From positions 80,073 through 144,072 of the IMG/VR virus record IMGVR_UViG_3300032308_002078: a stretch of 64,000 bases of DNA; one strand, written 5' to 3'. A program made the translations under genes and the position numbers. Under the pieces are notes generated by a model that ran no database searches, was not told the DNA's origin, and worked only from the letters and a program-made list of their open reading frames with translations. The DNA comes from a virus. Lineage: Duplodnaviria > Heunggongvirae > Uroviricota > Caudoviricetes. This document shows positions 17,491 through 44,444 of the stretch, one piece after another (within the stretch, counting starts at the first letter, position 1; the number at the start of each line of letters is the position of its first letter).

Positions 17491-17730
17491 ATGGATAATT
17501 TTGATTTAAAGAAATATTTAGTAGAAAATAGATTAAAGGAAACTACTTTAACCGAAGCTAAATATAATGAATTTATGTTAGAATGGATGGTTCCTGGGAA
17601 AGAATCTAATACATTAATGTCTAAAAATTTAAAAGAATTATTTAATTTTATTGATGAAAAAAATATAAAAGACTATACTGTTAAAGGATGGGATGGGAGA
17701 AAATGGGATACTTTAATTAGTAGTTTATAA
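17491..17730 (+). CDS. Small putative internal head protein
   Basis: N-terminus MDNFDLKKYLVENRLKETTLTEA. Confidence 0.55.
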   Translation: MDNFDLKKYLVENRLKETTLTEAKYNEFMLEWMVPGKESNTLMSKNLKELFNFIDEKNIKDYTVKGWDGRKWDTLISSL

Positions 17731-17751
17731 TAAATAAAAATATATTAAATT

Positions 17752-17779
17752 AAGCTTGGGAAACCAAGCTTTCTTTTTT
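17752..17779 (+). terminator. Rho-independent terminator that also contains a promoter upstream element
   Basis: AAGCTTGG-GAAA-CCAAGCTT followed by a T-rich run. Confidence 0.7.
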
Positions 17780-17784
17780 ATATT
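17755..17784 (+). promoter_or_regulatory. Bipartite promoter CTTGG-N19-TATATT for the primase operon
   Basis: CTTGG at 17755-17759 and TATATT at 17779-17784. Confidence 0.6.
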
Positions 17785-17790
17785 ACATTA

Positions 17791-18720
17791 ATGCTAAATC
17801 AAGCCCTGATTGCGTTAGTGAATTCTGTACTAGGTACAGGTAAGTCTACCTCTAGAGGTAACCAGTCTCACCATTGTCCTTTTTGTAATCATGCTAAACC
17901 TAAATTAGAAATTAATTTTGATGAAGGTTCATCTCATTATGAAAAATGGCATTGTTGGGCTTGTGATAAAAAAGGTAAAAAAATTCAACAACTATTTAAA
18001 GCAGTAAAAGCAACACCTGACAAAATGGCTGAATTAAAAGCCATTGTTAAGTCATTTGTTGTTTATAATAAGCAAGAAGAAGTTGAAACTTTATCTTTAC
18101 CTAAAGAATTTAAACCATTAATTAATATTCAGAAATCAGATATTTTAGGAAGACATGCTTTAACCTATGTTAAATCTAGAGGCATAACAGATGAAGATAT
18201 TATGAAATATAATATTGGATATTGTTCTTCAGGTAACTATGGTAAAATGGTTATTATTCCTTCATATGATGCTGATGGTAAGTTAAATTATTTTACAGGA
18301 AGATCATTTGAAAAAGATTCAAAAGTAAAATATAGAAACCCATCTGTGTCTCGTGATATCATACCCTTTGAGTTGTTTATAAACTGGAATATACCGTTTA
18401 TATTATGCGAAGGACCATTTGACGCCATTGCTATCAAACGTAATGCAATACCGTTATTAGGCAAGAATATACAGTCTACTTTGATGAAAAAGATTGTAAT
18501 GTCTAGTGTCGAAAAAATATATATAGCTTTAGACAAAGACGCTCAAAAACAAGCATTAAGTTTTTGTGAGCGTCTGATGAACGAAGGCAAAGAAGTTTAT
18601 CTTGTAGACATGCAAGATAAGGACCCAAGTGAAATGGGTTTTAAGAATTTCATAGACATAATTTCAGACACATTACCCTTAACATTCTCAGGGTTACTTG
18701 AGAAAAAACTCTTTTTATGA
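17791..18720 (+). CDS. DNA primase (zinc finger + TOPRIM)
   Basis: HCPFC...WHCWAC zinc finger; LCEGPFDAI and IALDKDA TOPRIM motifs. Confidence 0.85.
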   Translation: MLNQALIALVNSVLGTGKSTSRGNQSHHCPFCNHAKPKLEINFDEGSSHYEKWHCWACDKKGKKIQQLFKAVKATPDKMAELKAIVKSFVVYNKQEEVETLSLPKEFKPLINIQKSDILGRHALTYVKSRGITDEDIMKYNIGYCSSGNYGKMVIIPSYDADGKLNYFTGRSFEKDSKVKYRNPSVSRDIIPFELFINWNIPFILCEGPFDAIAIKRNAIPLLGKNIQSTLMKKIVMSSVEKIYIALDKDAQKQALSFCERLMNEGKEVYLVDMQDKDPSEMGFKNFIDIISDTLPLTFSGLLEKKLFL

Positions 18721-19490: not shown

Positions 19491-19511
19491 AATTTTTTTT
19501 ATATATTTATA
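19478..19511 (+). promoter_or_regulatory. Bipartite promoter TTTGG-N19-TATATT with overlapping TATTTATA box
   Basis: TTTGG at 19478-19482 and TATATT at 19502-19507. Confidence 0.6.
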
Positions 19512-19524
19512 GATAAATAAAAAA

Positions 19525-19758
19525 ATGAAAGATATTATAAGAATGAACCAATTAGCAGGTACTATAACTGAAGGCCAAGCTAAAAAAATGTCAAAAGTAT
19601 TAACTGAAGAAATGGATGCTTTTGGTTATAGTAACTCAGTCCAATCTGTTATTAACCAACTTATAGATATGGGTAAAGAAGGTAAACAAGCTCTAGCAAC
19701 ATTAGAAAAAATTCCAGATTGGAATGAAATGGTGCAAGCTGCTGTAGACGATTTCTAA
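19525..19758 (+). CDS. Small putative internal head protein
   Basis: N-terminus MKDIIRMNQLAGTITE. The RxxxLAG motif also ends the scaffold protein. Confidence 0.55.
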   Translation: MKDIIRMNQLAGTITEGQAKKMSKVLTEEMDAFGYSNSVQSVINQLIDMGKEGKQALATLEKIPDWNEMVQAAVDDF

Positions 19759-19780
19759 AAATAAAATATATTTAAAATTA

Positions 19781-19806
19781 AGGGCTTGGTTATCCAAGCC
19801 TTTTTT
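19781..19806 (+). terminator. Rho-independent terminator containing a promoter upstream element
   Basis: GGCTTGG-TTAT-CCAAGCC followed by TTTTTT. Confidence 0.7.
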
Positions 19807-19814
19807 GTTATATT
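19785..19814 (+). promoter_or_regulatory. Bipartite promoter CTTGG-N19-TATATT
   Basis: CTTGG at 19785-19789 and TATATT at 19809-19814. Confidence 0.6.
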
Positions 19815-19831
19815 TATGACAAACCATATCC

Positions 19832-20593
19832 ATGATTGGACTGATATCACTCTTAAAAGAAATACAAGGCAAGCCAAAAGCAATTTTTATGGCTGGCCCT
19901 GCTGGTTCAGGTAAATCATTTATATCTCAAAAATTAGTACCTTCAAATTTTACTACTATTAATGTAGATGATACCTATGAGGAATTACTTAAATCCTCAG
20001 GTATCGGAATGAAATTAGCTAAAATGTCACCTGATGAATTAAAAAAATCAGGTGAGCTAATGGGTCAAGCAAGAAAAGCAACAGACGCTAAACTTCAAGA
20101 TGCTTCTAAAAATGCTAAAAATTTATTAATTGATAGTGTAGGTGGTTCATCTAAAATGTTACTTAAGAAAAAACAAGAATTAGAATCATTAGGTTACGAT
20201 ACGGCAATGATAATGACTTATGTATCTCCTATTACCTCACTAGAGCGTAATAAACAGCGAGACAGATCATTGTTGCCGAGTATTGTGATTCGTTCTTGGC
20301 GTGATGTAAATACCAATATAGACGCATACAGACAGGCGTTTGGTAACAATTTTTCCCTAGTAAATTTAGATCCTAAAGACGCTCAAAAAGATTTTGATGA
20401 GGATTTTATTTATAAAACTTACATTGAACCTTTAGGACAAGTAGGTAAGGAAAAATCACCTGAAGAAAAAGTAAAATCTAAAGCCGAGGCAGAACAATTA
20501 TATTCAGATATAAAACAAACTCTTAAATCACAACCAGAGTTTGATACAGTAGAACAAGCAAAAACAAAAATTACTAACTTTATAAACAAATGA
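19832..20593 (+). CDS. P-loop kinase (zeta-toxin/AAA_33-like) with capsid-targeting-like N-terminus
   Basis: Walker A FMAGPAGSGKS, INVDD, LLIDS and SLERNKQRDR lid motif. N-terminus MIGLISLLKE. Confidence 0.7.
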   Translation: MIGLISLLKEIQGKPKAIFMAGPAGSGKSFISQKLVPSNFTTINVDDTYEELLKSSGIGMKLAKMSPDELKKSGELMGQARKATDAKLQDASKNAKNLLIDSVGGSSKMLLKKKQELESLGYDTAMIMTYVSPITSLERNKQRDRSLLPSIVIRSWRDVNTNIDAYRQAFGNNFSLVNLDPKDAQKDFDEDFIYKTYIEPLGQVGKEKSPEEKVKSKAEAEQLYSDIKQTLKSQPEFDTVEQAKTKITNFINK

Positions 20594-20979
20594 AAACATT
20601 ACTAGATCTATTAAATGAAATAGAAGAGAAACAAATGAATCCAATTGAAGAAGCTGAAACTAATATGGTAGATGAAATTGGTAAATTTTTTGTAGTTGAA
20701 AAACCTAAATCCAAAAATGATAAAGTGGATGATATCATGTTTGAGTCTACTGTAACTTATTTTGCTAATCAAGTTAGAGGGGGTTTAGACGAAAAAACTG
20801 TTTTAGGTATTTATAAAGATAAAATGAGTGCCAAAAATAGAGCCTCAGAAGCTATTAAAGAGTTTGAAACTACTCTTAAAGAAATGGAAGATGCAATGGA
20901 AGCTTTCCGTGGTGCTAAAAAAGAAATTGAAGAAAAGAAAGCAGCTGCTAAAGAAAAAATTCAAAAACTTAAGCAATAA
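20590..20979 (+). CDS. Putative internal head protein
   Basis: N-terminus MKTLLDLLNE; C-terminal coiled coil. Confidence 0.55.
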   Translation: MKTLLDLLNEIEEKQMNPIEEAETNMVDEIGKFFVVEKPKSKNDKVDDIMFESTVTYFANQVRGGLDEKTVLGIYKDKMSAKNRASEAIKEFETTLKEMEDAMEAFRGAKKEIEEKKAAAKEKIQKLKQ

Positions 20980-23900
20980 TGAATGAACTAACTAAATTCC
21001 TTATTAAGGAACTGTTAGATGAATCTAAAACAGTAGCCATTTATGGTGGTGGGTTTAAACCACCTACCAAAGGTCATTTTAATGTTGCTGAGTTAGCTTT
21101 AAATGAATTACCAGATATAGATGAGTTAAAAATATTTGTTGGTAAAGGTGTTAGAGAAGGAATCACTCAAAAAGAATCTTTAGCAGTTTGGAACATTTAT
21201 AAAAAATATCTTTTACCTAAAGTTATCATAGAACCATCACCAAAAGGAGAACCAACAATGGATGTTATTCGTTATGCTAGAGAACATCCTGAAGAAAAAG
21301 TCTATTGGATTTTAGGCGCTAGAGATGGTGATGAAGGAGATATAAAAGATGTAGAGCAAAGAAAAAATTTATTAAAAAAATATCCTGAAGTTACAAATGT
21401 TGAGGTTAAAGTGATTACCTCAACAGGTGGTGTAAGTGGAACTAAAGCAAGACAATCCCTTAAAGCAAGAGATAAAGAACAATTCTTCCAATTTATCCCA
21501 GATATTAAAGAAAAAGAACAAGTATGGGATATTGTTTCTCCTGTTGTTAAAGAAGAAATTACTCCTGACCAAGTAAAACAAGCTGATACTTATGCTGACA
21601 AGCAATTAGCTCCAGTTGATGTTGATTTAACCTCAAAACATGTTTTTGATAGATTAACAAGCAGAGACTCAGATGTCACTTTAGCTCAATTAATTGGTTT
21701 CTTTAAAAGACTAGGTCAAAATAAAAAAGAATTTTTTGATTTCTTTAAAAAATATAAAGAGATTGTAGCTACAGATAAAAGAACTAACTTAAATATTCCT
21801 TTCCTTAATATGACAAATAAAGCAATAGCTAAAACCATTATGAGGAAAGATAATTTTATGTCTTCAAGTCCTAAATTAGTGTTTGAGGTAAGCAAAGAAA
21901 TAACACCTGATGATATAACTAGAATTTTAAAACGAACAGGTGAAGAGCAAGATTTATATGTTAAAGACTGGGATGAATTCACTCCGGAACTTTGTAATGA
22001 TGGGTTTTGTGATATATTTGCTGAAAAATTTAAAGAAGAATATCCTGGAGCTGAATTATGGCAAACTAGTGTTAGTACATCACCTTGGGGATTTGGACAT
22101 AGTTGGGTGAAATATAAAGATAAATTTTATGATGCTGAAACTCCAATTGGGGTTGAAGATTGGAGAGATTTACCTTACATCCAAAAATTATATCAAGTAG
22201 GTAAATCATATCCTGAAGATGTAAAACGAATAAATGAAGTAGGCGAGGCAAATCTTAAACCATACAAATGGGAAGAGGTTGATATGAATGGATGGGTTAC
22301 TTATGTTGAGTTTACAACAGAGAGTGAAACTGAATATAATGTAGATATAGCAACTGTTCCTTATTTTGATAAGGATTTAAATAATTACAAAGCTTTAGAA
22401 ATTGAATTTTTAGCTAAACCTAAAGATGCTCAAGGTTCATCTGCTAAAATAATAGTCAATAAAGGTGAACTTTATAGAGTAATGGCTACTATAACAGACA
22501 TAATTAAATATTATGTAAAGAAATTTAAAGCCAAAGCTATTTCATATTCACCTTCTAAAAAATCAGATGAGGAAGATTTTGGTTCTCAAAGAGACAATTT
22601 GTATAGAGCATTTATTTCTAAAGCAATACCAGGTGTAAGGTTTGAAAAAAACTCAAACTTTATAACAGCTATTTTACCTGACAATACAATCAATGAAGAA
22701 GATCCTAAAGTAGGAACAGGTAAAAAACCTAAAGGATCATCTCGTAGATTATACACAGATGAAGATCCTAAAGATACAGTTAGTATTAAATTTAAAACTA
22801 AAGAAGATATAGTTGATACTTTAAATAAAACATCTTTTAAAGCTAAATCTCATGCTCGTCAATCTCAAATAATTAATGTAGTTCATCAACGAGTAAGAGC
22901 AGCATATAGTAAAGCAAAAAATCCTGAGGTTAAATCAAGACTAAAACGTGCTTTAGATTATATTGAAAAACGTAAAGAAATGTCTAAAAAGAAAACAGAA
23001 CGTTTACGTAAAATGAAAGAAGCATCCGACCCACAAGCAGGTACAGCTTTACCATACGGTTCAGGATTTGCTCCTGTTAATGAAGGTCGTTATGATTCTA
23101 TAACTAGATTAGTAGTTAAAGATATAATAAATAGTTGGAAAAGTCAATTTAATGGTGAAGCCAGTGAGTTAAGATTTGAAGAAGATTATGAGTTAGAAAA
23201 TTCTAAAGGCCAACCCATTGACTTTGAACTTTTAGCTGTCTTAAATTTAAAAGAAACAGAAGATAAAACTTATATAGTAGATGGTGGAGCTAATGAAGAA
23301 TTAGATCCTCCTTATCTAGAAGTTAACTTTCAGGTTGACCCAAGGAATTTACCTAAAATGTGGTCTACTATATATAGTGATTTAATAGATGTTGTTAGAC
23401 ATGAAATAGAACATTTAACTCAATCAGGTGTTAATGTAATTTCTTCTAAAGAAATGGTTGATGACCAATCTATTAGACAAATGATTAATTGGGGTTTATT
23501 ACCTCAAGCTGAATATTTTAAGTTAGAAAAAGAAGTAGATGCTATGTTACAAGGCATGTACTTAAAAGCTAAAAAATCTAAAACACCTTTTAAAGATGTA
23601 ATTAATGATTACTTTGAAAAAGTAGGGCTAGAAGGTGAAGACAAGCAAGATGTTCTTGACTTATGGACTAAAAGACTAAAGGCATTAAACTTACCAGCTA
23701 TTCAAGAAAATGATACATTTGGTTTAAATGAATTAGCAAAAACCTTTATTAAAGAAACATTTGAAAAGGCTTGGAATCTCCAAGAAGGAATGTTATCTTT
23801 ATCTAAATATATGATAGACAATGGAATGAATATTAAACCATTGCCTAAAATAAAGGTTATAAAAGACGATGAAGAAAATGCGTCCCATCTTTTGGGTAAA

Positions 23901-24146
23901 ACAGCTTATTATGATCCGAATAATAAATCCATTACTCTCTATACTATGAATAGACACCCAAAAGATGTTTTACGTTCATTTGCTCATGAGATGGTTCATC
24001 ATGAACAAAATTTAGAAGGTAGATTAAATAATATTAATACTACTAATACAAATGAGGATGGAGATTTACCTGAGATTGAAAAAGAAGCATATGAAAAAGG
24101 AAATATGATGTTACGTAATTGGGAGGATAGTATTAAAAATGTATAA
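20979..24146 (+). CDS. Multidomain polyprotein: HxGH nucleotidyltransferase, Cys-His-Asp hydrolase-like module, two HExxH zinc-peptidase modules
   Basis: GGFKPPTKGH; FCDIFA...GHSWV...FYDAE; HEIEH...EVDA; HEMVH...EKEAY. Confidence 0.7.
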   Translation: MNELTKFLIKELLDESKTVAIYGGGFKPPTKGHFNVAELALNELPDIDELKIFVGKGVREGITQKESLAVWNIYKKYLLPKVIIEPSPKGEPTMDVIRYAREHPEEKVYWILGARDGDEGDIKDVEQRKNLLKKYPEVTNVEVKVITSTGGVSGTKARQSLKARDKEQFFQFIPDIKEKEQVWDIVSPVVKEEITPDQVKQADTYADKQLAPVDVDLTSKHVFDRLTSRDSDVTLAQLIGFFKRLGQNKKEFFDFFKKYKEIVATDKRTNLNIPFLNMTNKAIAKTIMRKDNFMSSSPKLVFEVSKEITPDDITRILKRTGEEQDLYVKDWDEFTPELCNDGFCDIFAEKFKEEYPGAELWQTSVSTSPWGFGHSWVKYKDKFYDAETPIGVEDWRDLPYIQKLYQVGKSYPEDVKRINEVGEANLKPYKWEEVDMNGWVTYVEFTTESETEYNVDIATVPYFDKDLNNYKALEIEFLAKPKDAQGSSAKIIVNKGELYRVMATITDIIKYYVKKFKAKAISYSPSKKSDEEDFGSQRDNLYRAFISKAIPGVRFEKNSNFITAILPDNTINEEDPKVGTGKKPKGSSRRLYTDEDPKDTVSIKFKTKEDIVDTLNKTSFKAKSHARQSQIINVVHQRVRAAYSKAKNPEVKSRLKRALDYIEKRKEMSKKKTERLRKMKEASDPQAGTALPYGSGFAPVNEGRYDSITRLVVKDIINSWKSQFNGEASELRFEEDYELENSKGQPIDFELLAVLNLKETEDKTYIVDGGANEELDPPYLEVNFQVDPRNLPKMWSTIYSDLIDVVRHEIEHLTQSGVNVISSKEMVDDQSIRQMINWGLLPQAEYFKLEKEVDAMLQGMYLKAKKSKTPFKDVINDYFEKVGLEGEDKQDVLDLWTKRLKALNLPAIQENDTFGLNELAKTFIKETFEKAWNLQEGMLSLSKYMIDNGMNIKPLPKIKVIKDDEENASHLLGKTAYYDPNNKSITLYTMNRHPKDVLRSFAHEMVHHEQNLEGRLNNINTTNTNEDGDLPEIEKEAYEKGNMMLRNWEDSIKNV

Positions 24147-24675
24147 GTTAACAGATTTATATAAACAACTAAAGGAGGAAGAAACTGAACCTCAACAACA
24201 GTATAAAATTTACTGTGACATGGATGGTGTTTTAACTAACTTTGAAAGCCGCTTTAAATCATTAAACCCAGAACATTTATCTCCAGCCCAATACCAGGCT
24301 AAATATAGTGTAGAAAAGTTTTGGAATTTTATTGATGAAGAAATAGGCGTTAAATTTTGGGTAGGAATGCCTTGGATGTCTGATGGTAAAGAGTTATGGG
24401 ATTATATTAAAGACAAACAACCAACTTTATTATCTGCTCCTTCAAGAAAACCACAATCTCGTTTAGGAAAAAGATTATGGGTTAAAAATAATATACCTGG
24501 AACTAAATTAATTTTATCCTCAGCTGATAAAAAACAAAATTACTCTAAACCAGATACCATACTTATCGACGATCGTCCTGACAACATTGACCAATGGAGG
24601 TTAAAAGGTGGTATAGGAATTTTACATACAAACACACAAGACACAATTAAACAACTACAAGCATATGGCCTTTAA
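24139..24675 (+). CDS. HAD-family 5'(3')-deoxyribonucleotidase-like phosphatase
   Basis: IYCDMDGVL, LLSAP, K..W and LIDDRPDNI motifs. N-terminus MYKLTDLYKQLKEE. Confidence 0.8.
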   Translation: MYKLTDLYKQLKEEETEPQQQYKIYCDMDGVLTNFESRFKSLNPEHLSPAQYQAKYSVEKFWNFIDEEIGVKFWVGMPWMSDGKELWDYIKDKQPTLLSAPSRKPQSRLGKRLWVKNNIPGTKLILSSADKKQNYSKPDTILIDDRPDNIDQWRLKGGIGILHTNTQDTIKQLQAYGL

Positions 24676-25450
24676 AAGAATAGTAGCAAACTCAGAAGAA
24701 GATTTGGAAACAATCATGAGTGATATTAAAGATTGGTTTAAAAATTCCAATGATTATAAAACTGAATTTAGCACTGAGAAACGTAAGTTTCAAGATCCTG
24801 ATACTAAAGCAATTGTTGAAAAAAGTATTGATGTTATTAAAGTAACAGATACTGCTAATGATAAGTTTTCAACTATTAAATTTCTTCCTATGAAAGAAAA
24901 AGGAGAAATGAAAGTAGAAATAGGTGGAGAAGGTGAAGCGGCTGTATCTGGTAAAATTTCTAACCAAATGAAAGGTAAAGGTAAACTAAAAAGCTATAGT
25001 AAAGATAAAAAAGTAGCTTTAAAAGAAGCCTTAGACAAACGTTTAGGACTTGTATTTTTAAAATATAAAGGACAATCGTTTCCTATGGATTATAAAACAG
25101 GTTCTAAATTTGAAAGATTTATTAAAGACTTAGAAAAATCAGGATACTTTTCAGATGAGGATGAAGTTTCAGATTTTATGTCAAGTAATGAATTTGAAAG
25201 ATACACTGATAAATTTAATGTTAGTTTAGAAGAACCAGGTTACAGTCCTGAAAAATTAAAATTAGCCCCTGAAAAGCCATCTTCAACTGTAGATTCTAAA
25301 CCTAGACAAACCAGAGATATGTCTACAAAACCAGGAGCAACTCCAGGAGCAACTTCATTGACAGATTTTGATTTACAAGAATTACTTAAAAAAGGTAAAG
25401 TTAAAACATCAGTATTAAAAGAAATTATTAAAAGAGAATACAAAAAATAA
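24665..25450 (+). CDS. Hypothetical protein
   Basis: 261-aa ORF in the operon, with internal LKEA and LVFE-type sites. Confidence 0.55.
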   Translation: MAFKRIVANSEEDLETIMSDIKDWFKNSNDYKTEFSTEKRKFQDPDTKAIVEKSIDVIKVTDTANDKFSTIKFLPMKEKGEMKVEIGGEGEAAVSGKISNQMKGKGKLKSYSKDKKVALKEALDKRLGLVFLKYKGQSFPMDYKTGSKFERFIKDLEKSGYFSDEDEVSDFMSSNEFERYTDKFNVSLEEPGYSPEKLKLAPEKPSSTVDSKPRQTRDMSTKPGATPGATSLTDFDLQELLKKGKVKTSVLKEIIKREYKK

Positions 25451-26022
25451 TGAGTAACGATTCGGTTTTAAAAAAAGAGTTCAAGTCTAAAGATGTAGAA
25501 CGTCTCCGTAACCTTGTAAAAGGTAAATATAGTGAGCGTACTACTATGGGAACTGGTTATACAAAAGCAAAAGAATTCCATAATGAAGGAGATATTTGGG
25601 AAGAAGATAGTCGAACATGGACAATCAAAAATGGCATAAAACAAAATATTACAAAATTAGATAAGGCAAAAGAAGGCATTGTTTTGCCTTTATTTTGCCC
25701 TAAGTGTTCTAAAGCAACTAAACAACATTTAGATAAAAAATGGTTTGTGATGTATGGTCATTGCTTTAATTGCCAGGTAGACCACGAACATCAACTTCGT
25801 AAAGAAGGTAAATTAGAAGCCTTTGAAAAAGATGTTATTAACCAACATTTAGAAGGTACTATTAAAGACTTTGAAGTGTGGTTTGATGAACTAATCAATG
25901 AAAAAGAAACCTTTATCACAGAAGCAGGTGATGTTGAAAAGTGGGATGGTAATGGTAAATCTCAATTACTTAAATATAAAGAGGAAGCTTTAGAGTATTT
26001 AAAGAAACAAAAGAAAGAATAA
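25450..26022 (+). CDS. Hypothetical zinc-finger protein
   Basis: CPKC and CFNC pairs. Confidence 0.55.
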   Translation: MSNDSVLKKEFKSKDVERLRNLVKGKYSERTTMGTGYTKAKEFHNEGDIWEEDSRTWTIKNGIKQNITKLDKAKEGIVLPLFCPKCSKATKQHLDKKWFVMYGHCFNCQVDHEHQLRKEGKLEAFEKDVINQHLEGTIKDFEVWFDELINEKETFITEAGDVEKWDGNGKSQLLKYKEEALEYLKKQKKE

Positions 26023-27259: not shown

Positions 27260-28894
27260 ATGGCGAAATTTGACTTAAAAAAAGCAATATTAGAAAATAA
27301 AGCTACATTCTTTGGCTCCTTAACTGAAGGACAATTTTCTTGGATGACCCAAGACACAGGACAACAAATTGGATCCGAAGAAGAAAACATGATTCCAGTC
27401 TACATGTTTGATGATAAAGGCAAGTACTATTATGAAAAAAATTATGATGGGTATGGTGTATTTGGTGGAATGGATTATTATGAATTATTAGACAAAATGA
27501 ATGGTGGTAAGGGCGATAGAAGTAGAGGTATTGATTTAGCTTTTGATAAAGTAAAAACTGATAGTGAAATATTATTTCCCGCTTTAGTTACTAGACCTAA
27601 TGAGTTTGATTACACAACTCATGATTTTACTAAAGAAGCAAAACACGATCCTAACCAATCTTGGTATGCTGCTGAAGAAGATGAAGATTTTATTGATCAA
27701 AATGATGAAGAGGTATATGGATATGATGATGAAGATGAGGAAAATGAAGAAGAATTAGAAGAAGGATACATGGGTCAATTTTATGCTCCTGAGTATCTAG
27801 AGCAAAAATATGGTAAAGAAATGGCTTCAAAAATAGAAGCTGAAATTGAGGAAATGGATGAAAATTCTTATGACAGATTTACTGGAATGGAATCAGCTGA
27901 AGAAGTTGAAAATTATATCTCTGATATTAAAGATATGTTAAATTTAAATGAATTAAAAACTACAAATACAAAAATGAAAATGTCAGAATTTAAGGCTAAG
28001 ATCAAAGAAATGGTGTTAGCAGAAATGAACCTAGATGTAACTGATGAAACCTCAGGATATGATTTCTTAGCTGAAATTGAAGGCATGTTAGATGAAGAAG
28101 ATGGTTTAACTCCTCTTCAAGACTACATTTATCAATACGAAATAGAAATTAGTGGTGAAGATAGAGCACAAGAATTTTTAGATGATATTAGAAAATTAAA
28201 CACTCCAGATGATGTTTATAATTATTATGCTTATGATAGAGATTGGTCAGGTTCTATGGATGATGATTTAGAAAATATCTACAGACAAGTAAAAAGAAAA
28301 TTTAAAAATTTAGAAGAAGCTAAAAAAGACGAAGAAGTAGCAGATGAAGAAATTGAAGTAACAGATGAATTTTCTACAGAAGAACCCCAAGGTCCAGGTG
28401 GAATTGATGTTGCTCAAAACGCAGACGCTGACTTAACAGGTGATAAAAAAGATGTTCAAGACAACTTAGAAGCTGCTTTAGAAGCAGCTAAAGCTTTAGG
28501 TGATGATAAATTAGCTACTCAAATTGGTAACTCATTAACTTTCTTTACTAAACAACATGTTGTTAAAGAAGATTTAAATGAAGATGAAAACTTAACAGAA
28601 AGTAAATATAAAAAAGGCGATATGTTGCAAACATATGGTGGTGAAGAAGAAGTTACAGTAATAGATATAAAATCTAATTTAGCAGCTGCTTTAGCAGATA
28701 CTGAAAATCTTAAAGCTGTTGGATTACTTAAACAAAATTTACGTCAAAATCTTATAGATGATGAAGATAAAAATAAACCTTTTTATTTAGTAACATCTAA
28801 TTCCTTTCCAGAGGATATGTATTATGTTGAGTCTGAATTAAAAAGTTCAATAAATGAATCTATGTTCCCAATGTTAAAGAAAATTTTAAAATAA
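27260..28894 (+). CDS. Acidic modular putative internal head polyprotein
   Basis: N-terminus MAKFDLKKAILEN; many LxE sites. Confidence 0.6.
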   Translation: MAKFDLKKAILENKATFFGSLTEGQFSWMTQDTGQQIGSEEENMIPVYMFDDKGKYYYEKNYDGYGVFGGMDYYELLDKMNGGKGDRSRGIDLAFDKVKTDSEILFPALVTRPNEFDYTTHDFTKEAKHDPNQSWYAAEEDEDFIDQNDEEVYGYDDEDEENEEELEEGYMGQFYAPEYLEQKYGKEMASKIEAEIEEMDENSYDRFTGMESAEEVENYISDIKDMLNLNELKTTNTKMKMSEFKAKIKEMVLAEMNLDVTDETSGYDFLAEIEGMLDEEDGLTPLQDYIYQYEIEISGEDRAQEFLDDIRKLNTPDDVYNYYAYDRDWSGSMDDDLENIYRQVKRKFKNLEEAKKDEEVADEEIEVTDEFSTEEPQGPGGIDVAQNADADLTGDKKDVQDNLEAALEAAKALGDDKLATQIGNSLTFFTKQHVVKEDLNEDENLTESKYKKGDMLQTYGGEEEVTVIDIKSNLAAALADTENLKAVGLLKQNLRQNLIDDEDKNKPFYLVTSNSFPEDMYYVESELKSSINESMFPMLKKILK

Positions 28895-28900: not shown

Positions 28901-29071
28901 ATGAACACACAAGAATTAGCAGAAAAAATCGAGTTATTATTTGAAGAGTTTAAAGCAGAACACGCTAAAACTACAAAAGCAGCTCATGGCCGTGCCCGCA
29001 AGGCATTAGGTGAAATCAAGAAATTGGTTACCGAGTACCGTAAAGCTTCTATTGAAGAAGACAAAAAATAA
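28901..29071 (+). CDS. Histone H1-like (Hc1 family) small DNA-binding protein; not in the ORF track
   Basis: Translates as MNTQELAEKIELLFEEFKAEHAKTTKAAHGRARKALGEIKKLVTEYRKASIEEDKK (56 aa). KAAxxRARKA...xxxxRKxS resembles Bacteroidota Hc1-like proteins. Confidence 0.7.
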   Translation: MNTQELAEKIELLFEEFKAEHAKTTKAAHGRARKALGEIKKLVTEYRKASIEEDKK

Positions 29072-32450: not shown

Positions 32451-33068
32451 ATGAACTTAAGAAAATTAGTTAATGAGGTATTAGAAGGTAAAGATTGCTG
32501 TACAGCAACTAAACCTACTAAAGCACCTATATTAAATGAAAATTTAAAGTCGCGTATCTTGATGACTGAGAATATGCAATATCATATAGACAGTAAAAAA
32601 CCGTTATTTGAGACAACATTACCATATGGTTCTAAAGAATATTTAGACTTATGGGTTGAAGCAAGATATTTGTATTCTCGTGGTGTTTTAAACGTTGAAG
32701 GTATTGACAAAGAAAAAATTACTGAAACTCATTTAGGTGAATATGGAATATTTGAAGGACAAATGGTTCCTTTAGATATGCCTATGTTAGATGAAAATAT
32801 ATTAACAGAAGCAGAATACCAAGGACGTAAAGTTGAATTAAATAAACCAATGCAAGGTGATATTAAAAAATTCAAAGTATATGTTAAAAACGCTAAAGGT
32901 AAAGTTGTAAAAGTTAACTTTGGATTTGGTGGAAAATCAGCTAAAGGTAAGCGAATGGTAATTAAAGCTAAAAACCCTAAAGCTCGCGCCGCCTACAGAT
33001 CAAGACACCATTGTGACAATCCAGGACCAAAATGGAAAGCAAATTACTGGTCTTGTAAAAAATGGTAA
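32451..33068 (+). CDS. Putative internal head protein with basic Cys/His C-terminal module
   Basis: N-terminus MNLRKLVNEVLE. After LTE/A: KKFKVYV...VNFG...RSRHHCDNPGPKWKANYWSCKKW. Confidence 0.6.
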   Translation: MNLRKLVNEVLEGKDCCTATKPTKAPILNENLKSRILMTENMQYHIDSKKPLFETTLPYGSKEYLDLWVEARYLYSRGVLNVEGIDKEKITETHLGEYGIFEGQMVPLDMPMLDENILTEAEYQGRKVELNKPMQGDIKKFKVYVKNAKGKVVKVNFGFGGKSAKGKRMVIKAKNPKARAAYRSRHHCDNPGPKWKANYWSCKKW

Positions 33069-33069: not shown

Positions 33070-33459
33070 ATGATAAAACTACAAGACATATTAAAACAAA
33101 TTCTTGAAGAAGAAAAAGTAAAACGTGACAGATGTTTAAGAATAGCTGACCGTAAATTTGATAAACCTTCTGCTTATAAATCAGGAGCTGTAGTTAGATG
33201 TCGTGCTGGAAAGATTTGGAAAGATATTAAAGAAGAAGAACTAAATGAAGATGAAAGTCTTCATAAATGGTTTAAACGTTCTGGTCCTAAAGGTAAAGAA
33301 GGTGGTTGGGTAGACTGTAATGCCCCTGATGGTAAAGGAGGATATAAAGCATGTGGTAGAAAAGAAGGTGAAAAACGTTCTAAATATCCTGCTTGTAGAC
33401 CTACTCCTGCTGGATGTAAAGCAAAAGGTAAAGGTAAAACATGGGGAAAAACAAAATGA
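33070..33459 (+). CDS. Putative internal head protein with basic Cys-rich modules (start moved from 33013)
   Basis: MIKLQDILKQILEE start follows the previous stop. Modules DRC...SAY.SG.VVRCR and LHKWFK...WVDC...KYPACRP. Confidence 0.6.
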   Translation: MIKLQDILKQILEEEKVKRDRCLRIADRKFDKPSAYKSGAVVRCRAGKIWKDIKEEELNEDESLHKWFKRSGPKGKEGGWVDCNAPDGKGGYKACGRKEGEKRSKYPACRPTPAGCKAKGKGKTWGKTK

Positions 33460-33881
33460 TAAACTTATTAGATATATTAAGTGAAGCAGAGGTAGCAAAA
33501 TGCCCTGCTCCTACTCAAAACATTGAATTAAACCTTCAGAATAGGCAGAAGGCAATTAATGAATATGGATACGGACCATTAAACCCAAATGAACCTAATG
33601 AGAAATTTTGGCAGGCTAAAGTTGATATGTGGAAGCTTGATTCTGCAGAAGAAGCCAAAAAATCACTTTGTGGTAACTGTGCTGCTTTTGATGTAACAAA
33701 AAAGACTTTAGATTGTATTGCTAAAGGAATAGGTAATGATGAAGGTTCTGAAGATCCTTTTGATGTTATTGAAGCTGGAGATTTAGGTTATTGCCGGTTC
33801 CTTAAATTTAAATGCGCCGCTGCTAGAACTTGTGATGCTTGGGTTGTTGGAGGTCCTATCACAGATGACAAAACCGTATAA
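33456..33881 (+). CDS. Cys-rich protein with HiPIP-like motif (start moved from 33441)
   Basis: MINLLDILSEA; CGNCAAF...GYCRFLKFKCAAARTCDAW. Confidence 0.55.
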   Translation: MINLLDILSEAEVAKCPAPTQNIELNLQNRQKAINEYGYGPLNPNEPNEKFWQAKVDMWKLDSAEEAKKSLCGNCAAFDVTKKTLDCIAKGIGNDEGSEDPFDVIEAGDLGYCRFLKFKCAAARTCDAWVVGGPITDDKTV

Positions 33882-36391: not shown

Positions 36392-36646
36392 ATGAGTGAT
36401 AAAAATAAATTTCAACCAAGTAAAAAATTAGTTAAGACTGATGGTACTATTGCTTGGGTATGGGAAGGCAAATTACATAATATGGAAGGTCCAGCATTGA
36501 TTCCTGAAGGTGATAATCGTAAACGTGAATATCATATTCATGGAATTAAATATACAGAAGATGGTTGGAAAGAAGCAAGACGTAATCGTGAAGGTTTGCC
36601 TTGGTATAAAACAGCAGCAGGACAAGCAGGTCAAAATAGAAACTAA
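36392..36646 (+). CDS. Small hypothetical protein with an LH.xxGPA repeat unit
   Basis: GKLHNMEGPALI...EYHIHG. Confidence 0.5.
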   Translation: MSDKNKFQPSKKLVKTDGTIAWVWEGKLHNMEGPALIPEGDNRKREYHIHGIKYTEDGWKEARRNREGLPWYKTAAGQAGQNRN

Positions 36647-36648
36647 TT

Positions 36649-37179: not shown

Positions 37180-37190
37180 TATTTATAATC

Positions 37191-37631
37191 ATGAAATTGT
37201 CCAAGTTAAAATCTGAGATTAAAGAATATATTGTAGAAATTTTATCTGAAGTAGATGATACAGCAACTGAAAAAGCAGCTAACACAGCTGCTATTAATGC
37301 TGAAAAATTAAAAATTAAAGCTTCACAAGAAAAACTTGCAAATTTACAAAAAGGAGTCACTGAATCAGAAGATGAAGATAGAGAACCTACTAAAGCAGAA
37401 TTAGAAAAGGAAAAAGTAAAAACCGTTTCTAAATTTAAAGTTAGTAATGATGATTTCCAAGACTTTAAAACTAAATTATCTACATTAGTTAAAAAAATTA
37501 AGGCAATGGAAAAAGGAGCTGAAAAAGATAAAAAAATGGCTGCCTTAAAACAATTTATTAAGAAACCAGAATTAGTTAAAGCGTTTAAAGAAAGAGACGT
37601 TAAAATTGATACTGGTGATTTGGTTGGATAA
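37191..37631 (+). CDS. Putative internal head protein
   Basis: N-terminus MKLSKLKSEIKEYIVEILSE; preceded by TATTTATA at 37180. Confidence 0.55.
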   Translation: MKLSKLKSEIKEYIVEILSEVDDTATEKAANTAAINAEKLKIKASQEKLANLQKGVTESEDEDREPTKAELEKEKVKTVSKFKVSNDDFQDFKTKLSTLVKKIKAMEKGAEKDKKMAALKQFIKKPELVKAFKERDVKIDTGDLVG

Positions 37632-37632
37632 T

Positions 37633-38305: not shown

Positions 38306-38315
38306 ACTTAGTTAT

Positions 38316-39881: not shown

Positions 39882-39882
39882 A

Positions 39883-39890
39883 TATTTATA
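39883..39890 (+). promoter_or_regulatory. Putative late promoter box TATTTATA
   Basis: Intergenic, before the portal gene. Confidence 0.55.
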
Positions 39891-39911
39891 GTATATAATA
39901 AAAAATAAAAA

Positions 39912-41810: not shown

Positions 41811-41845
41811 GAATCTTTATATATTTATAACAAAACCTTTTGGGG

Positions 41846-42703
41846 ATGAACATTAAACATTCTAAGTATAAAAATACAGGAATCTTGTTTGAATTGTTGG
41901 TAAGACAAATCACATCAGATACACTTTCGGGTAAAGATTCGAAAGCAACTAACATATTAAAAAAATATTTTGTTAAAACTGAGTTAGGAAGAGAGTATAA
42001 ATTATACGAAACAATTACTAAGCATAAAAATTTAACAGAAGGTAAAGCTGAAATTGTAATTAACTCTGTTATTGAATCTTCTAAAAATTTAAATAGAGGA
42101 GCTTTAAAAAGACAAAAATATAATTTAATTCAAGAAATTTCTAAGTATTATAACCTAGAAGAATTCTTTAAAACTAAATTACCTAATTATAAGTCTTACG
42201 CCGCGTTATATACGTTAGTAGAAATATATAATAGCGAAATGTTGTCTAATCCTGACCAAATCATTACTAATAAGATTGCTATTTTAGAAGGATTAACAAC
42301 TAAAGAAGTTAATAAAAAGAAAGTTGAAGATGATTTAATGGTTGAGTTCCAATCTTATGATAAAGATTTACGTATCTTAACTTATAAAGTAATGTTGGAA
42401 AAATTTAATGGTAAATATGCTACATTAAATGATAACCAAAAACTAGTATTAAAAGAATTTATCAATTCAGTTGATTCAACCCCAAAATTAAGAGACTTTT
42501 ATAATACTAAAATTACAGAAATTAAAAATGAATTAACTAGAATAAGTAAAAAAGTTAATGATAAAGTTGTAAAAATTAAATTAAATGAAGTAGCTAAAAT
42601 TTTATCACCATTAGGTAAAACAGCTAATGTGGGTAATGATGATTTAGTTAATTTGTTACAATATTATGAACTTTTAGAAGAACTTATTAAAACAAATGGG
42701 TAA
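41846..42703 (+). CDS. Conserved head-module hypothetical protein (ATG at 41846)
   Basis: MNIKHSKYKNTGILFELLVRQ; preceded by TATTTATA at 41822. Confidence 0.6.
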   Translation: MNIKHSKYKNTGILFELLVRQITSDTLSGKDSKATNILKKYFVKTELGREYKLYETITKHKNLTEGKAEIVINSVIESSKNLNRGALKRQKYNLIQEISKYYNLEEFFKTKLPNYKSYAALYTLVEIYNSEMLSNPDQIITNKIAILEGLTTKEVNKKKVEDDLMVEFQSYDKDLRILTYKVMLEKFNGKYATLNDNQKLVLKEFINSVDSTPKLRDFYNTKITEIKNELTRISKKVNDKVVKIKLNEVAKILSPLGKTANVGNDDLVNLLQYYELLEELIKTNG

Positions 42704-43265
42704 TTTTAAATATAAAATAAAACCAGTATCAGAAGAATCAAATATAGCTTCTAACTCTTTCTTCACATCAGGAGGAGAAGGAGAAAATCATACAGGCCCA
42801 TCACCAAGAAAATCAACATACGGTGCTTATAAACAAGCAGGATATAAAAAAGTAACAGAAGGTCCTGGAGCAACTATGGGTCCTGGTCCTGCTGCTAGTG
42901 AGACAGGAGTTAAAAATAACACTTATGTTAAAGATTTTAAATATAAGTTAGTTAACCAAAAAGCACTAAATAAAAAAGCAAAAGGTATTATTGTTAAACC
43001 ACTTTGGGAAGCAGATACTAATGTTGAAGAATATTTACAAGATATAAACATCACAAATCCCGATAATAAAAAATGGATTGCATCTCGTTTAATGGGGTTT
43101 GATGAATTAGAAAGAAAATTAAACGAATTATTACCTTTATTACAACAAGCAAAACATGAAACTATGGATTATTATAGACAAAATCCAGATTCATTTAGTG
43201 TTGTATATGGTACTGATTTAGCAAATGATTACTTAAACGATTTAATAGAACTATTTAAAAAATAA
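42696..43265 (+). CDS. Hypothetical head-module protein
   Basis: 189 aa, with VSEE, VTEG and LWEA sites. Confidence 0.55.
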   Translation: MGNFKYKIKPVSEESNIASNSFFTSGGEGENHTGPSPRKSTYGAYKQAGYKKVTEGPGATMGPGPAASETGVKNNTYVKDFKYKLVNQKALNKKAKGIIVKPLWEADTNVEEYLQDINITNPDNKKWIASRLMGFDELERKLNELLPLLQQAKHETMDYYRQNPDSFSVVYGTDLANDYLNDLIELFKK

Positions 43266-43270
43266 AAAAC

Positions 43271-43501
43271 ATGGCAAATATACCAGTTAACGCAACAGGC
43301 ATAGTATCAACAACATCAGTAACAGGGAGTTTTGCTGGCTTTACTGTTGTATCAGGATCAGCTACTTTTACAGGGTTAAAAGATATTAACAACGGTAGTT
43401 TAACAGCAGCTGCTAACTGGGTAATACCAGCAGGTGTTACTATTCCTTATTATATCACTAGTGCTTCCTTATCTTCAGGAGCTGTTTTGTTCTATACTTA
43501 A
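43271..43501 (+). CDS. Small beta-rich protein, possible capsid decoration
   Basis: 76 aa, almost no charged residues, with TGS/SGS/SAS motifs. Confidence 0.45.
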   Translation: MANIPVNATGIVSTTSVTGSFAGFTVVSGSATFTGLKDINNGSLTAAANWVIPAGVTIPYYITSASLSSGAVLFYT

Positions 43502-43514
43502 TATTTATAACAAA

Positions 43515-44444
43515 ATGAAAACCTTACAACAAGAATATCAATTAATAAAAGAAGGTAAAGGTAACAAAGACCACTTCTTAAAAGTAGCAAGAAATATGTT
43601 TCCTGAATATGTAGCTCATGGTAATGATTTCAATTCAGCTGTATCTATTTTAAAAAGTAAAAGTCTTTTAACTGAAGCAGCAGGTGGTGTTGTTACTATG
43701 AATAACTCACAACCTAATTGGTTTAGTATTTTTAACACTAATTTAAAAGAAGCCATTGGTGTTAAAGACAAAAAAGAATATGGTGACCAAAACGAGTTTG
43801 AAAAACCAGCTCCAGAAGTAGCTAAAGATTTAGCTAATCAGTTTGATAATAATGATCCTAAAAACATTGATAACCTTTATGGTCAGTCATTTTTGTTAGG
43901 TTATTTAACTGAAATGTGGGATGAGAAAAATGCTGATAAAACAGTAGGTGAGTTAAAAGATATTGTAGCTAAAAACATGGCTAAAGATATTAACTACTAC
44001 CACACAAATGCTTCATTTGGTGTTAAAGGAATCGGATACACTAAAGATGTAGTTGGAGGTGGAGAACCAGTAGAACCTAAAGGCAAATATAAGTCTTCAG
44101 GATATGGTGACATGCCTAAAACAGTTAAAGAAGGTTTAAACGAAGCAAAACGCCCTAATATTAATTCTCAAATTAAAGAATTAGAAAAATCATCCCAAGC
44201 AATTGCTTTAGAAGCAAAATTAGCTGCTATTGATGAGGCAATTGAAAAACGTAAATCTAAATTAGCATTAGCAGAATCAGAAGATTTAGCTGAAATGATT
44301 GATCAGTCTATGGTTAAAGTTCTTAACAAAGAAATTAAAGAACTTGAAAAACATAAAGCTAAAAACCAAAAAATCTATGAAAAGATGACAGGTAAAGCTA
44401 AAGAAGAAGTTATTGATGAAGATGACGATATGATGGCTTATTAA
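43515..44444 (+). CDS. Putative prohead core/internal protein (start moved from 43434)
   Basis: MKTLQQEYQLIKE follows TATTTATA at 43502 and resembles the T4 capsid-targeting sequence MKTYQEFIAE. Confidence 0.6.
   Translation: MKTLQQEYQLIKEGKGNKDHFLKVARNMFPEYVAHGNDFNSAVSILKSKSLLTEAAGGVVTMNNSQPNWFSIFNTNLKEAIGVKDKKEYGDQNEFEKPAPEVAKDLANQFDNNDPKNIDNLYGQSFLLGYLTEMWDEKNADKTVGELKDIVAKNMAKDINYYHTNASFGVKGIGYTKDVVGGGEPVEPKGKYKSSGYGDMPKTVKEGLNEAKRPNINSQIKELEKSSQAIALEAKLAAIDEAIEKRKSKLALAESEDLAEMIDQSMVKVLNKEIKELEKHKAKNQKIYEKMTGKAKEEVIDEDDDMMAY

Follow-up and report, generated by a model that had tools for sequence, protein, structure and literature searches.

In phage T4, the internal proteins IPI, IPII, IPIII and Alt carry a capsid-targeting sequence that the gp21 prohead protease cleaves off (Mullaney & Black 1996; reviewed in PMC9026906 and PMC3012670), and experiments have shown that residues 4 and 7 of this tag matter for targeting and residues 8 and 10 for processing (PMC9026906). 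Propeptides are likewise removed by a gp21-related prohead protease from the ejection and inner-body proteins of phiKZ, 201phi2-1 and SPN3US (PMC5694885, PMC7411985, PMC10052503). In these phages, as would be the case in the phage described here, many head-internal proteins, enzymes included, are cut by a T4-related protease on the C-terminal side of the Glu that ends a very short motif; their motif, however, is S/A/G-x-E, their propeptides are long and have no defined short address, and their capsids are jumbo. Processing in these phages is documented by proteomics, whereas here it is predicted from sequence. Finally, Iyer, Burroughs, Anand, de Souza and Aravind (2017, PMC5512222) predicted that the polyvalent proteins of phages and conjugative elements are packaged and injected, and proposed that they cleave themselves with a built-in metallopeptidase.

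We analysed a window of 64,000 nucleotides of DNA from a T4-like uncultured phage with Flavobacteria-type hosts, whose complete genome holds 212 genes, and compared it with about 160 related contigs and the cultured Flavobacterium phage immuto. About a dozen proteins of this phage begin with leaders that resemble the T4 tag, and for this reason we consider it probable that these proteins, enzymes among them, enter the capsid and have their leaders clipped off by the head protease. We put the probability that the leaders are T4-like capsid-targeting propeptides, removed by a gp21-type prohead protease, at roughly 0.65. The original prediction had proposed about 15 bearers. All of the N-termini that it quoted are present at their genes, and about a dozen of the bearers are real, our count being 11-12 between positions 17,491 and 44,444 and about 14 genome-wide (Table 1). 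Two gene starts were refined, that of the MIKLQDIL gene to 33070 and that of the MINLLDIL gene to 33456, the latter supported because orthologs begin exactly there; the gene at 19525, which carries a fourth type of leader, had been missed. As in T4, the protease belongs to the S77 family, the leaders are of similar length (10-20 aa) with hydrophobics at positions 4 and 7 and a cut motif [L/I]-x-E at 8-10, the tag is carried by unrelated proteins, the predicted cargo includes enzymes (Alt in T4), and the capsid protein and protease hold similar sites. In contrast to T4, this is a Bacteroidota-type phage with a capsid protein only distantly related to gp23, and some 10-14 bearers per genome are predicted from the genes, against four internal cargo proteins in T4.

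Table 1. Leader-bearing genes and head-module genes, with positions in the window.
Feature	Position	Strand	Leader or site	Other evidence
116-aa protein, outside 17,491-44,444	4000..4350	+	type C, MKPSDFKKMIKE	8 [LIV]xE sites (z = 5.1)
79-aa protein	17491..17730	+	type B, MDNFDLKKYLVE, then NRLKETTLTE	
77-aa protein	19525..19758	+	type D, MKDIIRMNQLAGTITE	copy of scaffold C-terminal tail
Zeta-toxin-like P-loop kinase	19832..20593	+	type A, MIGLISLLKE	Pfam Zeta_toxin, E = 4.6e-10
129-aa acidic protein	20590..20979	+	type A, MKTLLDLLNE	many [LIV]xE sites
1055-aa shuffled polyprotein	20979..24146	+	MNELTKFLIKELLDE	
5'(3')-deoxyribonucleotidase (HAD/NT5C)	24139..24675	+	MYKLTDLYKQLKE, acidic linker	PHROG 2643
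544-aa acidic protein	27260..28894	+	type B, MAKFDLKKAILE	
56-aa protein, weak candidate	28901..29071	+	MNTQELAEKIELLFE	small basic mature part, pI 9.8
205-aa Cys-rich protein	32451..33068	+	MNLRKLVNE, then VLE	
DUF5872 protein	33070..33459	+	MIKLQDILKQILE	Pfam DUF5872
141-aa protein	33456..33881	+	type A, MINLLDILSE	
146-aa protein	37191..37631	+	type C, MKLSKLKSEIKEYIVEILSE	directly upstream of terminase gene
309-aa head-module protein	43515..44444	+	[LI]-[LI]-[TS]-E, then [AG], at about residue 53	site conserved
Prohead protease, T4 gp21 family	44446..45054	+		Pfam PF03420 Peptidase_S77, E = 7.6e-30, above cut-off
Scaffold protein	45263..46504	+	C-terminal tail KKPILE then VNDQFARWQTLAGIKK	22 [LIV]xE sites
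Major capsid protein, gp23-like	46547..48310	+	QAKQLVTE at about residue 60	site conserved

At least four interchangeable leader types, all ending in [LIV]-x-E, occur in this lineage. We denote them type A (M-x-x-L-x-x-[LI]-L-x-E), type B (F-D-L-K-K-Y-L-x-E-N-K), type C (M-K-K-S-E-L-K-x-x-I-K-E) and type D (F-K-R-M-Q-K-L-A-G-I-I-x-E). AlphaFold models present the leader as a detached helix ending at the Glu, and Pfam and PHROG matches begin downstream of it. The type A leaders MIGLISLLKE, MKTLLDLLNE and MINLLDILSE have hydrophobics at the T4 targeting positions 4 and 7. Among 52 unique orthologs of the kinase, only positions 4, 7, 8 and 10 of the leader are conserved (L4, L/I7 and L8 in 51/52 each, E10 in 48/52), with positions 3, 5, 6 and 9 free. 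These are the positions that act as determinants in T4, which supports reading the leader as a capsid address followed by a cut site. The type B motif has 10 N-terminal and 0 internal occurrences in five genomes (p = 2e-13). For the eight-residue type D motif, R-[WMF]-Q-x-L-A-G-[ILVT], we found 11 occurrences in five genomes: five at scaffold C-termini, five near N-termini (four of them clear leaders) and one internal. That a short peptide suffices to load foreign cargo inside an HK97-fold shell is familiar from encapsulin cargo-loading peptides and from the coat-binding scaffold C-terminus of P22; encapsulin tags are usually C-terminal and uncleaved. The type D leader is similar in that it copies the C-terminal tail of the scaffold, and the scaffold tail of this phage may bind the shell.

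The gp21-like protease that had been placed in the window is indeed there, shares 38% identity with the T4 gp21 region, and is flanked by portal, scaffold and capsid genes. Conserved sites of the kind that ends the leaders are found in the capsid protein, the protease, the scaffold and the 43515 protein. In the protease these are QLTE at residue 20 and, close to the C-terminus, LLTE; that of the capsid protein is conserved in five genomes, and in an alignment with mature T4 gp23 the start of the mature T4 protein falls near residue 54. The N-terminal MKTLQQEYQLIKE of the 43515 protein, listed in the original prediction as a leader, proved unreliable as a cut site, its Glu being replaced by Lys in 7 of 30 orthologs. 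A caution is that a motif as short as [LIV]xE is frequent in a Glu/Leu/Ile-rich proteome.

The 1055-aa protein has an N-terminal HxGH nucleotidyltransferase domain, as judged from an AlphaFold model and PDB fold matches to NadD/PPAT, and contains at least five more modules and two HExxH motifs (HEIEH and HEMVH). Its modules are reordered, lost or gained across about 45 orthologs, in which the distance from a module boundary to the nearest [LIV]xE averages 2.7 aa, against 27.5 aa for random positions (0 of 10,000 trials as good), and the motif is depleted inside the modules. The protein resembles polyvalent proteins in that unrelated enzyme domains, putative zincin-like HExxH modules among them, share one chain, in that domain order varies among relatives, and in that the gene lies near virion genes. 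It differs from them in that the chain starts with a T4-like address and its joints bear the motif of the prohead protease. A search for a polyvalent-protein metallopeptidase (MPTase) in the 1055-aa protein gave no Pfam, PHROG or PDB sequence match, and the Pfam search found no polyvalent-protein domain. In about 15 orthologs the nucleotidase is fused in frame to the polyprotein, and it is otherwise a separate gene with its own leader. The nucleotidase match to PHROG 2643 (E = 1.9e-25) begins at residue 19, and the AlphaFold model comprises a detached helix (residues 2-13), a disordered stretch (14-22) and then a confident HAD fold whose best PDB matches are deoxyribonucleotidases. Residues L4, Y8 and E13 are kept in more than 55 orthologs, and E13 is invariant among the 22 that were aligned.

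A leader that targets a protein to the prohead need not mean that the protein reaches the next host. Most bearers could instead be accessory proteins of the core or scaffold that serve once and are degraded and expelled as the head matures, as T4 gp22, gp67 and gp68 are (PMC9026906). Strong enrichment in [LIV]xE marks four small leader proteins, those at 4000, 17491, 20590 and 32451 (z = 3-5), along with the scaffold and the head-module proteins; the 37191 and 43515 proteins are conserved beside head genes. Several of the small site-rich proteins do look closer to disposable parts of the head core than to enzymes for injection. As an account of most bearers, however, we think this rather unlikely. 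The mature kinase has no further [LIV]xE site against 3.4 expected, which, with the depleted interiors of the polyprotein, fits products meant to survive the protease; there are clear enzymes among the bearers, and packaging of an enzyme has a precedent in T4 Alt.

The leaders are transferable units appended to unrelated mature proteins. Among 159 families, 19 are mostly leader-bearing, 6 have at least two leader types and 13 mix tagged and untagged members, and one mature family may bear a leader of type A, B, C or D, or none, depending on the phage. The mature domain of the 33456 protein has a type B leader in two relatives (MNNFDLKKYLAE or MDNFDIKRYLQE), and the ortholog of the 20590 protein in one relative, G003, bears the type C leader MKLSDFKQLIKE instead. 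Leaders of DUF5872 orthologs differ in sequence, yet all end in [LIV]xE directly before the conserved KxDRCLRIA core. In the 32451 family the leader is present in 18 unique orthologs and absent from 12, which begin at the Cys motif; this protein has a second conserved site, APILNE, after the leader. By regular expression, 42 of 52 unique orthologs of the 37191 protein are leader-bearing (41 type C, 1 type A), and some of the ten negatives still hold an L-x-E site. The 28901 gene fails the strict leader pattern but its ortholog in another relative (G002) matches, and the 544-aa protein holds an internal fossil type C leader, MKMSEFKAKIKE, at about residue 240. The exchange, gain and loss of leaders on the same mature domain, the copy of the scaffold tail and the polyprotein joints at [LIV]-x-E support the propeptide reading.

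Helices of this sort might also serve in the cytoplasm, in oligomerisation, docking of enzyme complexes or as regulatory propeptides, with no relation to the capsid and with [LIV]xE incidental to an amphipathic helix. The promoters bear on this. A late-type AATATTTATAA motif, common to portal, core and tail genes, would suit synthesis during prohead assembly and precedes most leader genes, among them those at 17491 (a single-gene unit with a terminator at 17752-17771), 19525, 27260, 32451 and 37191 (12 nt upstream). The 19832-26022 operon, which encodes the kinase, polyprotein and nucleotidase, is preceded by a terminator hairpin and then TTTTTGTTATATTTAT. Because this arrangement of a hairpin plus TGTTATATTTAT matches that of the replication genes (DNA polymerase and primase), it suggests that the operon is expressed early or middle; four enzyme genes lie behind this early/middle-type promoter. 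Leaderless orthologs also occur: in one subclade the nucleotidyltransferase polyprotein is entirely without a leader, and the nucleotidase of G003 lacks one, so these enzymes work without the tag. In addition, a similar helix, MTKDELKEKIK, occurs in the 30995 family but lacks the terminal [LIV]xE. These points, the promoter of the four enzyme genes and the leaderless enzymes of some relatives, temper the capsid-targeting interpretation of the original prediction, which several lines of sequence evidence otherwise favour. A cytoplasmic role nevertheless strikes us as unlikely, since it leaves unexplained the type D copy of the scaffold tail, the match of conserved positions to the T4 targeting and processing positions, the mutual substitution of four unrelated leader sequences, and the motif common to the polyprotein joints and to the propeptide sites of the capsid protein and protease.

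Chance must also be weighed, as AT-rich codons near gene starts favour Lys, Glu, Leu and Ile and could yield helix-like N-termini ending in LxE. The genome has 31.7% G+C, MK starts are frequent, and about 3 chance matches per genome are expected. The T4 tag supplied a pattern fixed in advance, [hydrophobic]-x-x-[hydrophobic]-[LIV]-x-E, with hydrophobics at -6 and -3, L/I/V at -2 and the Glu at residues 9-16; in the null, each protein's own first 25 residues were shuffled. The pattern matched 12 of the 212 genes, against 2.9 +/- 1.7 in the shuffles, which bears out the predicted enrichment over an AT-rich background. Three relatives gave 11-16 matches against about 3; in G003 the strict pattern gave no significant enrichment (7 against 3.9 expected). 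T4, as a positive control, gave 13 against 4.4, with IPII, IPIII and gp24 recovered. Eight of the 12 matches fall within 26 genes at 17491-38305, compared with 4 among the 186 genes elsewhere (Fisher p = 6.3e-6). Some matches are plainly false, namely those on a dUTPase-like protein, on a GT2 and on the terminase (MSQDLKQIIRE), the last rejected because its Glu is replaced by Gln in orthologs. On reading the N-termini of primase, exonuclease, baseplate, fibre and glycosyltransferase genes we found no such leaders, in keeping with their predicted absence from baseplate, primase and glycosyltransferase genes; one match, on a baseplate/tail-region gene past the end of the window, is a chance one. 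Given this clustering, and leader motifs that are conserved, swapped as units and N-terminally restricted across about 160 related loci, composition is a very improbable explanation. Although a short N-terminal tag common to many unrelated proteins could in principle mark them for modification, for instance by a radical-SAM/SPASM maturase, this is hardly credible, as no radical-SAM gene was found in the complete genome by a search that was positive in 14 of 14 control genomes and the leaders are of four distinct types, not one fixed tag.

Under the capsid-targeting reading, each leader would fold as an amphipathic helix of 10-22 residues at the N-terminus and bind, while the prohead assembles, to its scaffold/core or inner shell; the gp21-type (S77) protease would then remove the leader after the terminal [L/I/V]-x-Glu. 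The same motif would serve to cut apart the shuffled modules of the polyprotein. The mechanism itself is already known from T4, and what we describe may be a variant of it: T4 has one leader type, whereas four interchangeable types occur here, one of them copying the scaffold tail, and among the candidate cargo are kinase, nucleotidase and nucleotidyltransferase enzymes as well as putative zincin modules, joined in shuffled polyproteins. The mature cargo, which would include the zeta-like kinase, the HxGH nucleotidyltransferase polyprotein, the deoxyribonucleotidase, the DUF5872 protein and several small proteins, would then be present in virions and delivered with the DNA.

The window comprises bases 80073-144072 of a 165,734-bp IMG/VR virus record that is apparently complete, has a G+C content of 31.7%, and carries almost every gene on the + strand. 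The phage is a T4-like myovirus, and the gp21-like protease originally predicted in the window is indeed there, among the head genes, as a Peptidase_S77 match (see table). By protein, the nearest named phage is Flavobacterium phage vB_FspM_immuto (hereafter immuto), whose capsid protein is 54% identical; its annotation places a 75-aa protein and a 30-aa ORF in the interval from the protease gene to the scaffold gene. IMG/VR holds more than 600 related contigs. When 10 kb of the head module was searched at the nucleotide level against GenBank phages, there were no matches. The comparison covered four relatives as whole genomes, namely immuto and those that we call G001, G002, and G003, together with about 160 related loci.

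Features of the phage genome. Single numbers are gene start coordinates in the window, which also serve as gene names; in leader consensus sequences the predicted cut follows the final E, or the E before N-K in type B.
Feature	Position or bearers	Detail
Large terminase, T4-type	38316	head gene
Portal, gp20-type	39912	Pfam E = 9.5e-69
Prohead protease, Peptidase_S77 (gp21)	44446-45054	E = 7.6e-30
Scaffold	45263	head gene
Capsid protein, gp23-like	46547	head gene
Leader type A	19832 (zeta-toxin-like P-loop kinase), 20590, 20979 (polyprotein), 24139 (5'(3')-deoxyribonucleotidase), 32451, 33070 (DUF5872 protein), 33456	M-x-x-L-x-x-[LI]-L-x-E
Leader type B	17491, 27260, gene at genome position 159257 (beyond the window)	F-D-L-K-K-Y-L-x-E-N-K
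Leader type C	37191, 4000	M-K-x-S-E-L-K-x-x-I-K-E
Leader type D	19525	R-M-x-Q-L-A-G-x-I-x-E
Gap between protease and scaffold genes	45055-45262	208 nt without open reading frame
Long (A)nC repeat tract	46505-46546	AAAACAAAACAAAAAAC..., directly 5' of capsid gene
GIY-YIG-type homing-endonuclease-like genes, multiple	16775-17455 and at least 4 other places in the genome	MIGIYKITNPKGKIYIGQS...; late-type motif upstream of each

The original prediction was that about 15 proteins carry leaders, short N-terminal peptides ending in [LIV]-x-Glu that resemble the T4 capsid-targeting sequence, and that these proteins are packaged, matured, and injected with the DNA. All of the N-termini on which it was based are found in the sequence. 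In the T4 IPIII tag, MKTYQEFIAE, targeting needs residues 4 and 7 and processing needs residues 8 and 10 (PMC9026906). Changing the Glu to Asp abolishes cleavage in T4. To avoid circularity, we took our search pattern from T4 ([hydrophobic]-x-x-[hydrophobic]-[LIV]-x-E, with the Glu at residue 9-16), and expected counts were obtained by shuffling each protein's own first 25 residues. This genome, with 212 genes, has 12 matches, as against 2.9 ± 1.7 expected. Counts were 11 in G001 (2.6 expected), 12 in G002 (3.2), 16 in immuto (3.4), and 7 in G003 (3.9, not significant); T4, the positive control, gave 13 (4.4 expected), and there the pattern picks up IPII, IPIII, and gp24. The matches are also clustered, with 8 falling in the 26 genes at 17491-38305 and 4 in the other 186 (Fisher p = 6.3e-6). 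The predicted enrichment over an AT-rich background is thus present, and because of this excess over shuffles and the clustering, composition is not the explanation of the leader pattern. Some matches were discarded: that of the terminase is a false positive, not conserved among orthologs, and those with the Glu beyond residue 16 (GT2, a dUTPase-like protein, and others) are unconserved or lie inside known folds. The N-terminal site of the head-module protein 43515 is not a reliable cut site: 7 of 30 orthologs have Lys in place of its Glu. The better candidate is [LI][LI][TS]E, which is conserved near residue 53.

The leaders fall into four types (see table). Across the five genomes, the type B motif occurs in 10 N-terminal copies and no internal ones (p = 2e-13). 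The few internal copies of type C still have the methionine, which fits gene starts that have been fossilised within fusions. At about residue 240 of the 27260 protein (27260-28894), NTKMKMSEFKAKIKEMV has the look of an entire type C leader, start methionine included, and a similar internal leader is seen in two G001 proteins. This sequence suggests that the 544-residue 27260 protein may be the fusion product of two leader-bearing genes. The 56-aa protein of 28901-29071, whose leader match is weak here and good in G002, has as its predicted mature part a 41-residue, strongly basic peptide (pI 9.8), recalling small basic internal proteins. Among GenBank phages, tblastn with the type B leader matched only immuto and a type C query matched nothing, so far as these searches go, and among cultured phages the leader sequences seem limited to the present lineage. 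In immuto, leaders of these types are found on gp095, gp094, gp093, gp092, gp087 (nucleotidase), gp084 (DUF5872), gp083, gp082, gp080, gp079, gp077, gp076, gp072, and gp071. Sequence searches of Pfam, PHROGs, and the PDB found no family for the 17491, 20590, 27260, and 33456 proteins or for the polyprotein.

Conservation within the leaders is confined to particular positions. Among 52 unique kinase orthologs, L4, L/I7, and L8 are each conserved in 51 and E10 in 48, while positions 3, 5, 6, and 9 are free; the conserved positions are the four genetically defined in T4. In the nucleotidase leader, L4, Y8, and E13 are invariant and are followed by a linker variable in both length and sequence. 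Of 159 families with at least 3 members in the related loci, 19 are mostly leader-bearing, 2 or 3 of these being false positives. One and the same mature family may carry different leaders: type A or B in the 33456 family, type A or C in the 20590 family, and, in one case, type C, D, B, or none, depending on the phage. Leaders are also present or absent as whole units. The G003 nucleotidase has none, the nucleotidyltransferase polyprotein is leaderless in one subclade, and unique members of the 32451 family number 18 with a leader and 12 without. The existence of leaderless orthologs means that the tag is dispensable for the enzymes. In the 32451 family (32451-33068 here), a hypervariable Cys-rich stretch (CC, CGCGC, or CxCGCxxC) directly follows the leader and precedes an invariant APILNE; members without a leader start at the Cys motif.

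Pfam and PHROG matches start downstream of the leaders. For the nucleotidase, AlphaFold (mean pLDDT 89.5) predicts a helix at 2-13 whose last residue is the Glu; residues 14-22 are disordered (pLDDT <50), and after them comes a confidently modelled HAD fold, with 5'(3')-deoxyribonucleotidases as its top PDB matches. Judged by such models, the leaders are add-ons to folds. The kinase (19832-20593) matches PHROG 12810 at positions 271-428 of a 788-position profile, so other phages carry this kinase as one internal module within a far larger protein.

The cleavage motif recurs in the predicted substrates of the prohead protease. In the capsid protein, QAKQ[LI]V[TVS]E is conserved at about residue 60, and alignment to mature T4 gp23 predicts a cut near residue 54. 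The protease itself has a conserved QLTE at residue 20 and an LLTE near its C-terminus, and the scaffold has 22 [LIV]xE sites. Outside its leader, the kinase has no [LIV]xE site, as against 3.4 expected.

The 1055-residue product of 20979 is, by its sequence, a predicted shuffled polyprotein. In BLAST comparisons with about 45 orthologs, segment ends gather at residues 195, 308, 416, 574, 701, 906, and 927, and the modules so delimited differ in order among relatives. Cuts in this protein are predicted after residues 15, 192, 303, 420/423, 573, 702, and 910-936. The nearest [LIV]xE lies 1-5 residues from these boundaries (mean 2.7, as against 27.5 at random; 0 of 10,000 trials were as good), while module interiors hold 8 such sites versus 15.9 expected (P = 0.012), with six control motifs undepleted. 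A model of residues 1-215 has a helix at 3-13 followed by an HxGH nucleotidyltransferase fold, with NaMN/NMN adenylyltransferases and PPAT as best matches, and its confidence collapses at 192-194; beyond this nucleotidyltransferase, no family was recognised in the modules. In about 15 relatives, the nucleotidase is joined in frame to the end of the polyprotein and lacks its own leader. Motif sites upstream of these fused domains were left uncounted, since chance occurrence is likely in a 20-residue window. The HExxH motif is present twice in the polyprotein (20979-24146), as HEIEH near residue 820 and as HEMVH near residue 1000, and its relatives carry a CxxC...CxxC ribbon as well.

The scaffold offers a clue to how the leaders might work. 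It ends in ...KKPILE, a predicted cut, and then VNDQFARWQTLAGIKK, a tail conserved throughout the clade, and type D leaders read (E/N)-x-F-(K/R)-R-M-Q-K-L-A-G-I-I-T-E before the cut. The 8-residue scaffold-tail motif occurs 11 times in the five genomes (~246,000 residues): 5 times at the scaffold's extreme C-terminus, 5 times among residues 1-20 of other proteins (4 being clear leaders), and once internally. Such a copy of the tail is hard to explain otherwise than as a way in which the leader would occupy the scaffold's binding site in the prohead.

By promoter-like motif, the leader genes fall into two groups. In 17491, 19525, 27260, 32451, 37191, 43515, and 4000, AATATTTATAA lies 12-30 nt 5' of the ATG, as it does in the portal, core, sheath, tube, and fibre genes; the 7-mer ATATTTA is found in 54 upstream regions versus 7.4 expected. 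The 19832-26022 operon (kinase, 20590 protein, polyprotein, and nucleotidase) is instead preceded by a terminator hairpin (19780-19803) and then TTTTTGTTATATTTAT, an arrangement that it has in common with the DNA polymerase and primase genes. A hairpin followed by TTTTT(G)TTATAT(T) stands before these and many early-region genes. Promoter-like elements of the two classes lie at 19780-19831 and 17752-17790, and many genes in the leftmost 80 kb of the genome are preceded by them too. A sigma-70 consensus scan gave no signal (51 sites, 49.8 in shuffles). Because the arrangement is of the replication type, the operon enzymes may be early products that act in the cytoplasm, regardless of whether packaging occurs as well, with the timing read from motifs only.

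Altogether, we consider capsid targeting with removal by the prohead protease to be the best explanation of the leaders, with a probability of roughly 0.65. This part of the original prediction stands; the delivery of active enzymes into the host goes a step further and is more doubtful. Not all bearers need be effectors: 4000, 17491, 20590, and 32451 are small and rich in [LIV]xE sites, and look more like degraded core components. A tag for a radical-SAM maturase is excluded, as the genome has no radical-SAM gene.

In every respect that can be compared at the level of sequence, the leaders resemble the capsid-targeting sequence of T4 IPI-III and Alt. What sets the system apart from that of T4 is its lineage, how many bearers there are and of what kind, the four interchangeable leader types, of which one copies the scaffold tail, and the shuffled polyprotein with protease-motif joints. 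The polyprotein is similar to polyvalent proteins (Iyer et al. 2017, PMC5512222), for which self-cleavage by built-in zincins, rather than cleavage by a prohead protease, was proposed. The ejection proteins of phiKZ and SPN3US are a measured analogue with a different motif. We found leaders of this kind described in the literature only for T-even and jumbo phages, and not for marine or Bacteroidota T4-like phages.

Tentatively, we propose that throughout this clade, abundant marine and freshwater T4-like phages of Bacteroidota fill the capsid with a changeable kit of enzymes made beforehand, which they deliver with the DNA. At least four interchangeable address peptides, one copying the scaffold's shell-binding tail, would direct the loading, and the prohead protease would remove the address and cut shuffled polyproteins into effectors. 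The kit would comprise an HxGH nucleotidyltransferase, the zeta-like kinase, a deoxyribonucleotidase, zincins, and small proteins. If this is true, there would be several interchangeable address peptides, and the cargo would be far larger and more enzyme-rich than that of T4. It would also allow virion cargo to be predicted by a sequence rule with no more than the genome to go on, and would single out proteins of unknown function that probably take effect in the first seconds after infection, perhaps in counter-defence or in nucleotide or NAD-type metabolism. The scaffold-tail mimicry, if read correctly, suggests how the address works, and the cultured relative immuto is a system in which the reading could be examined. 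Should the reading hold, capsid targeting of the T4 kind would be no T-even curiosity, and would instead represent a general, evolvable loading system in an abundant lineage of aquatic phages.
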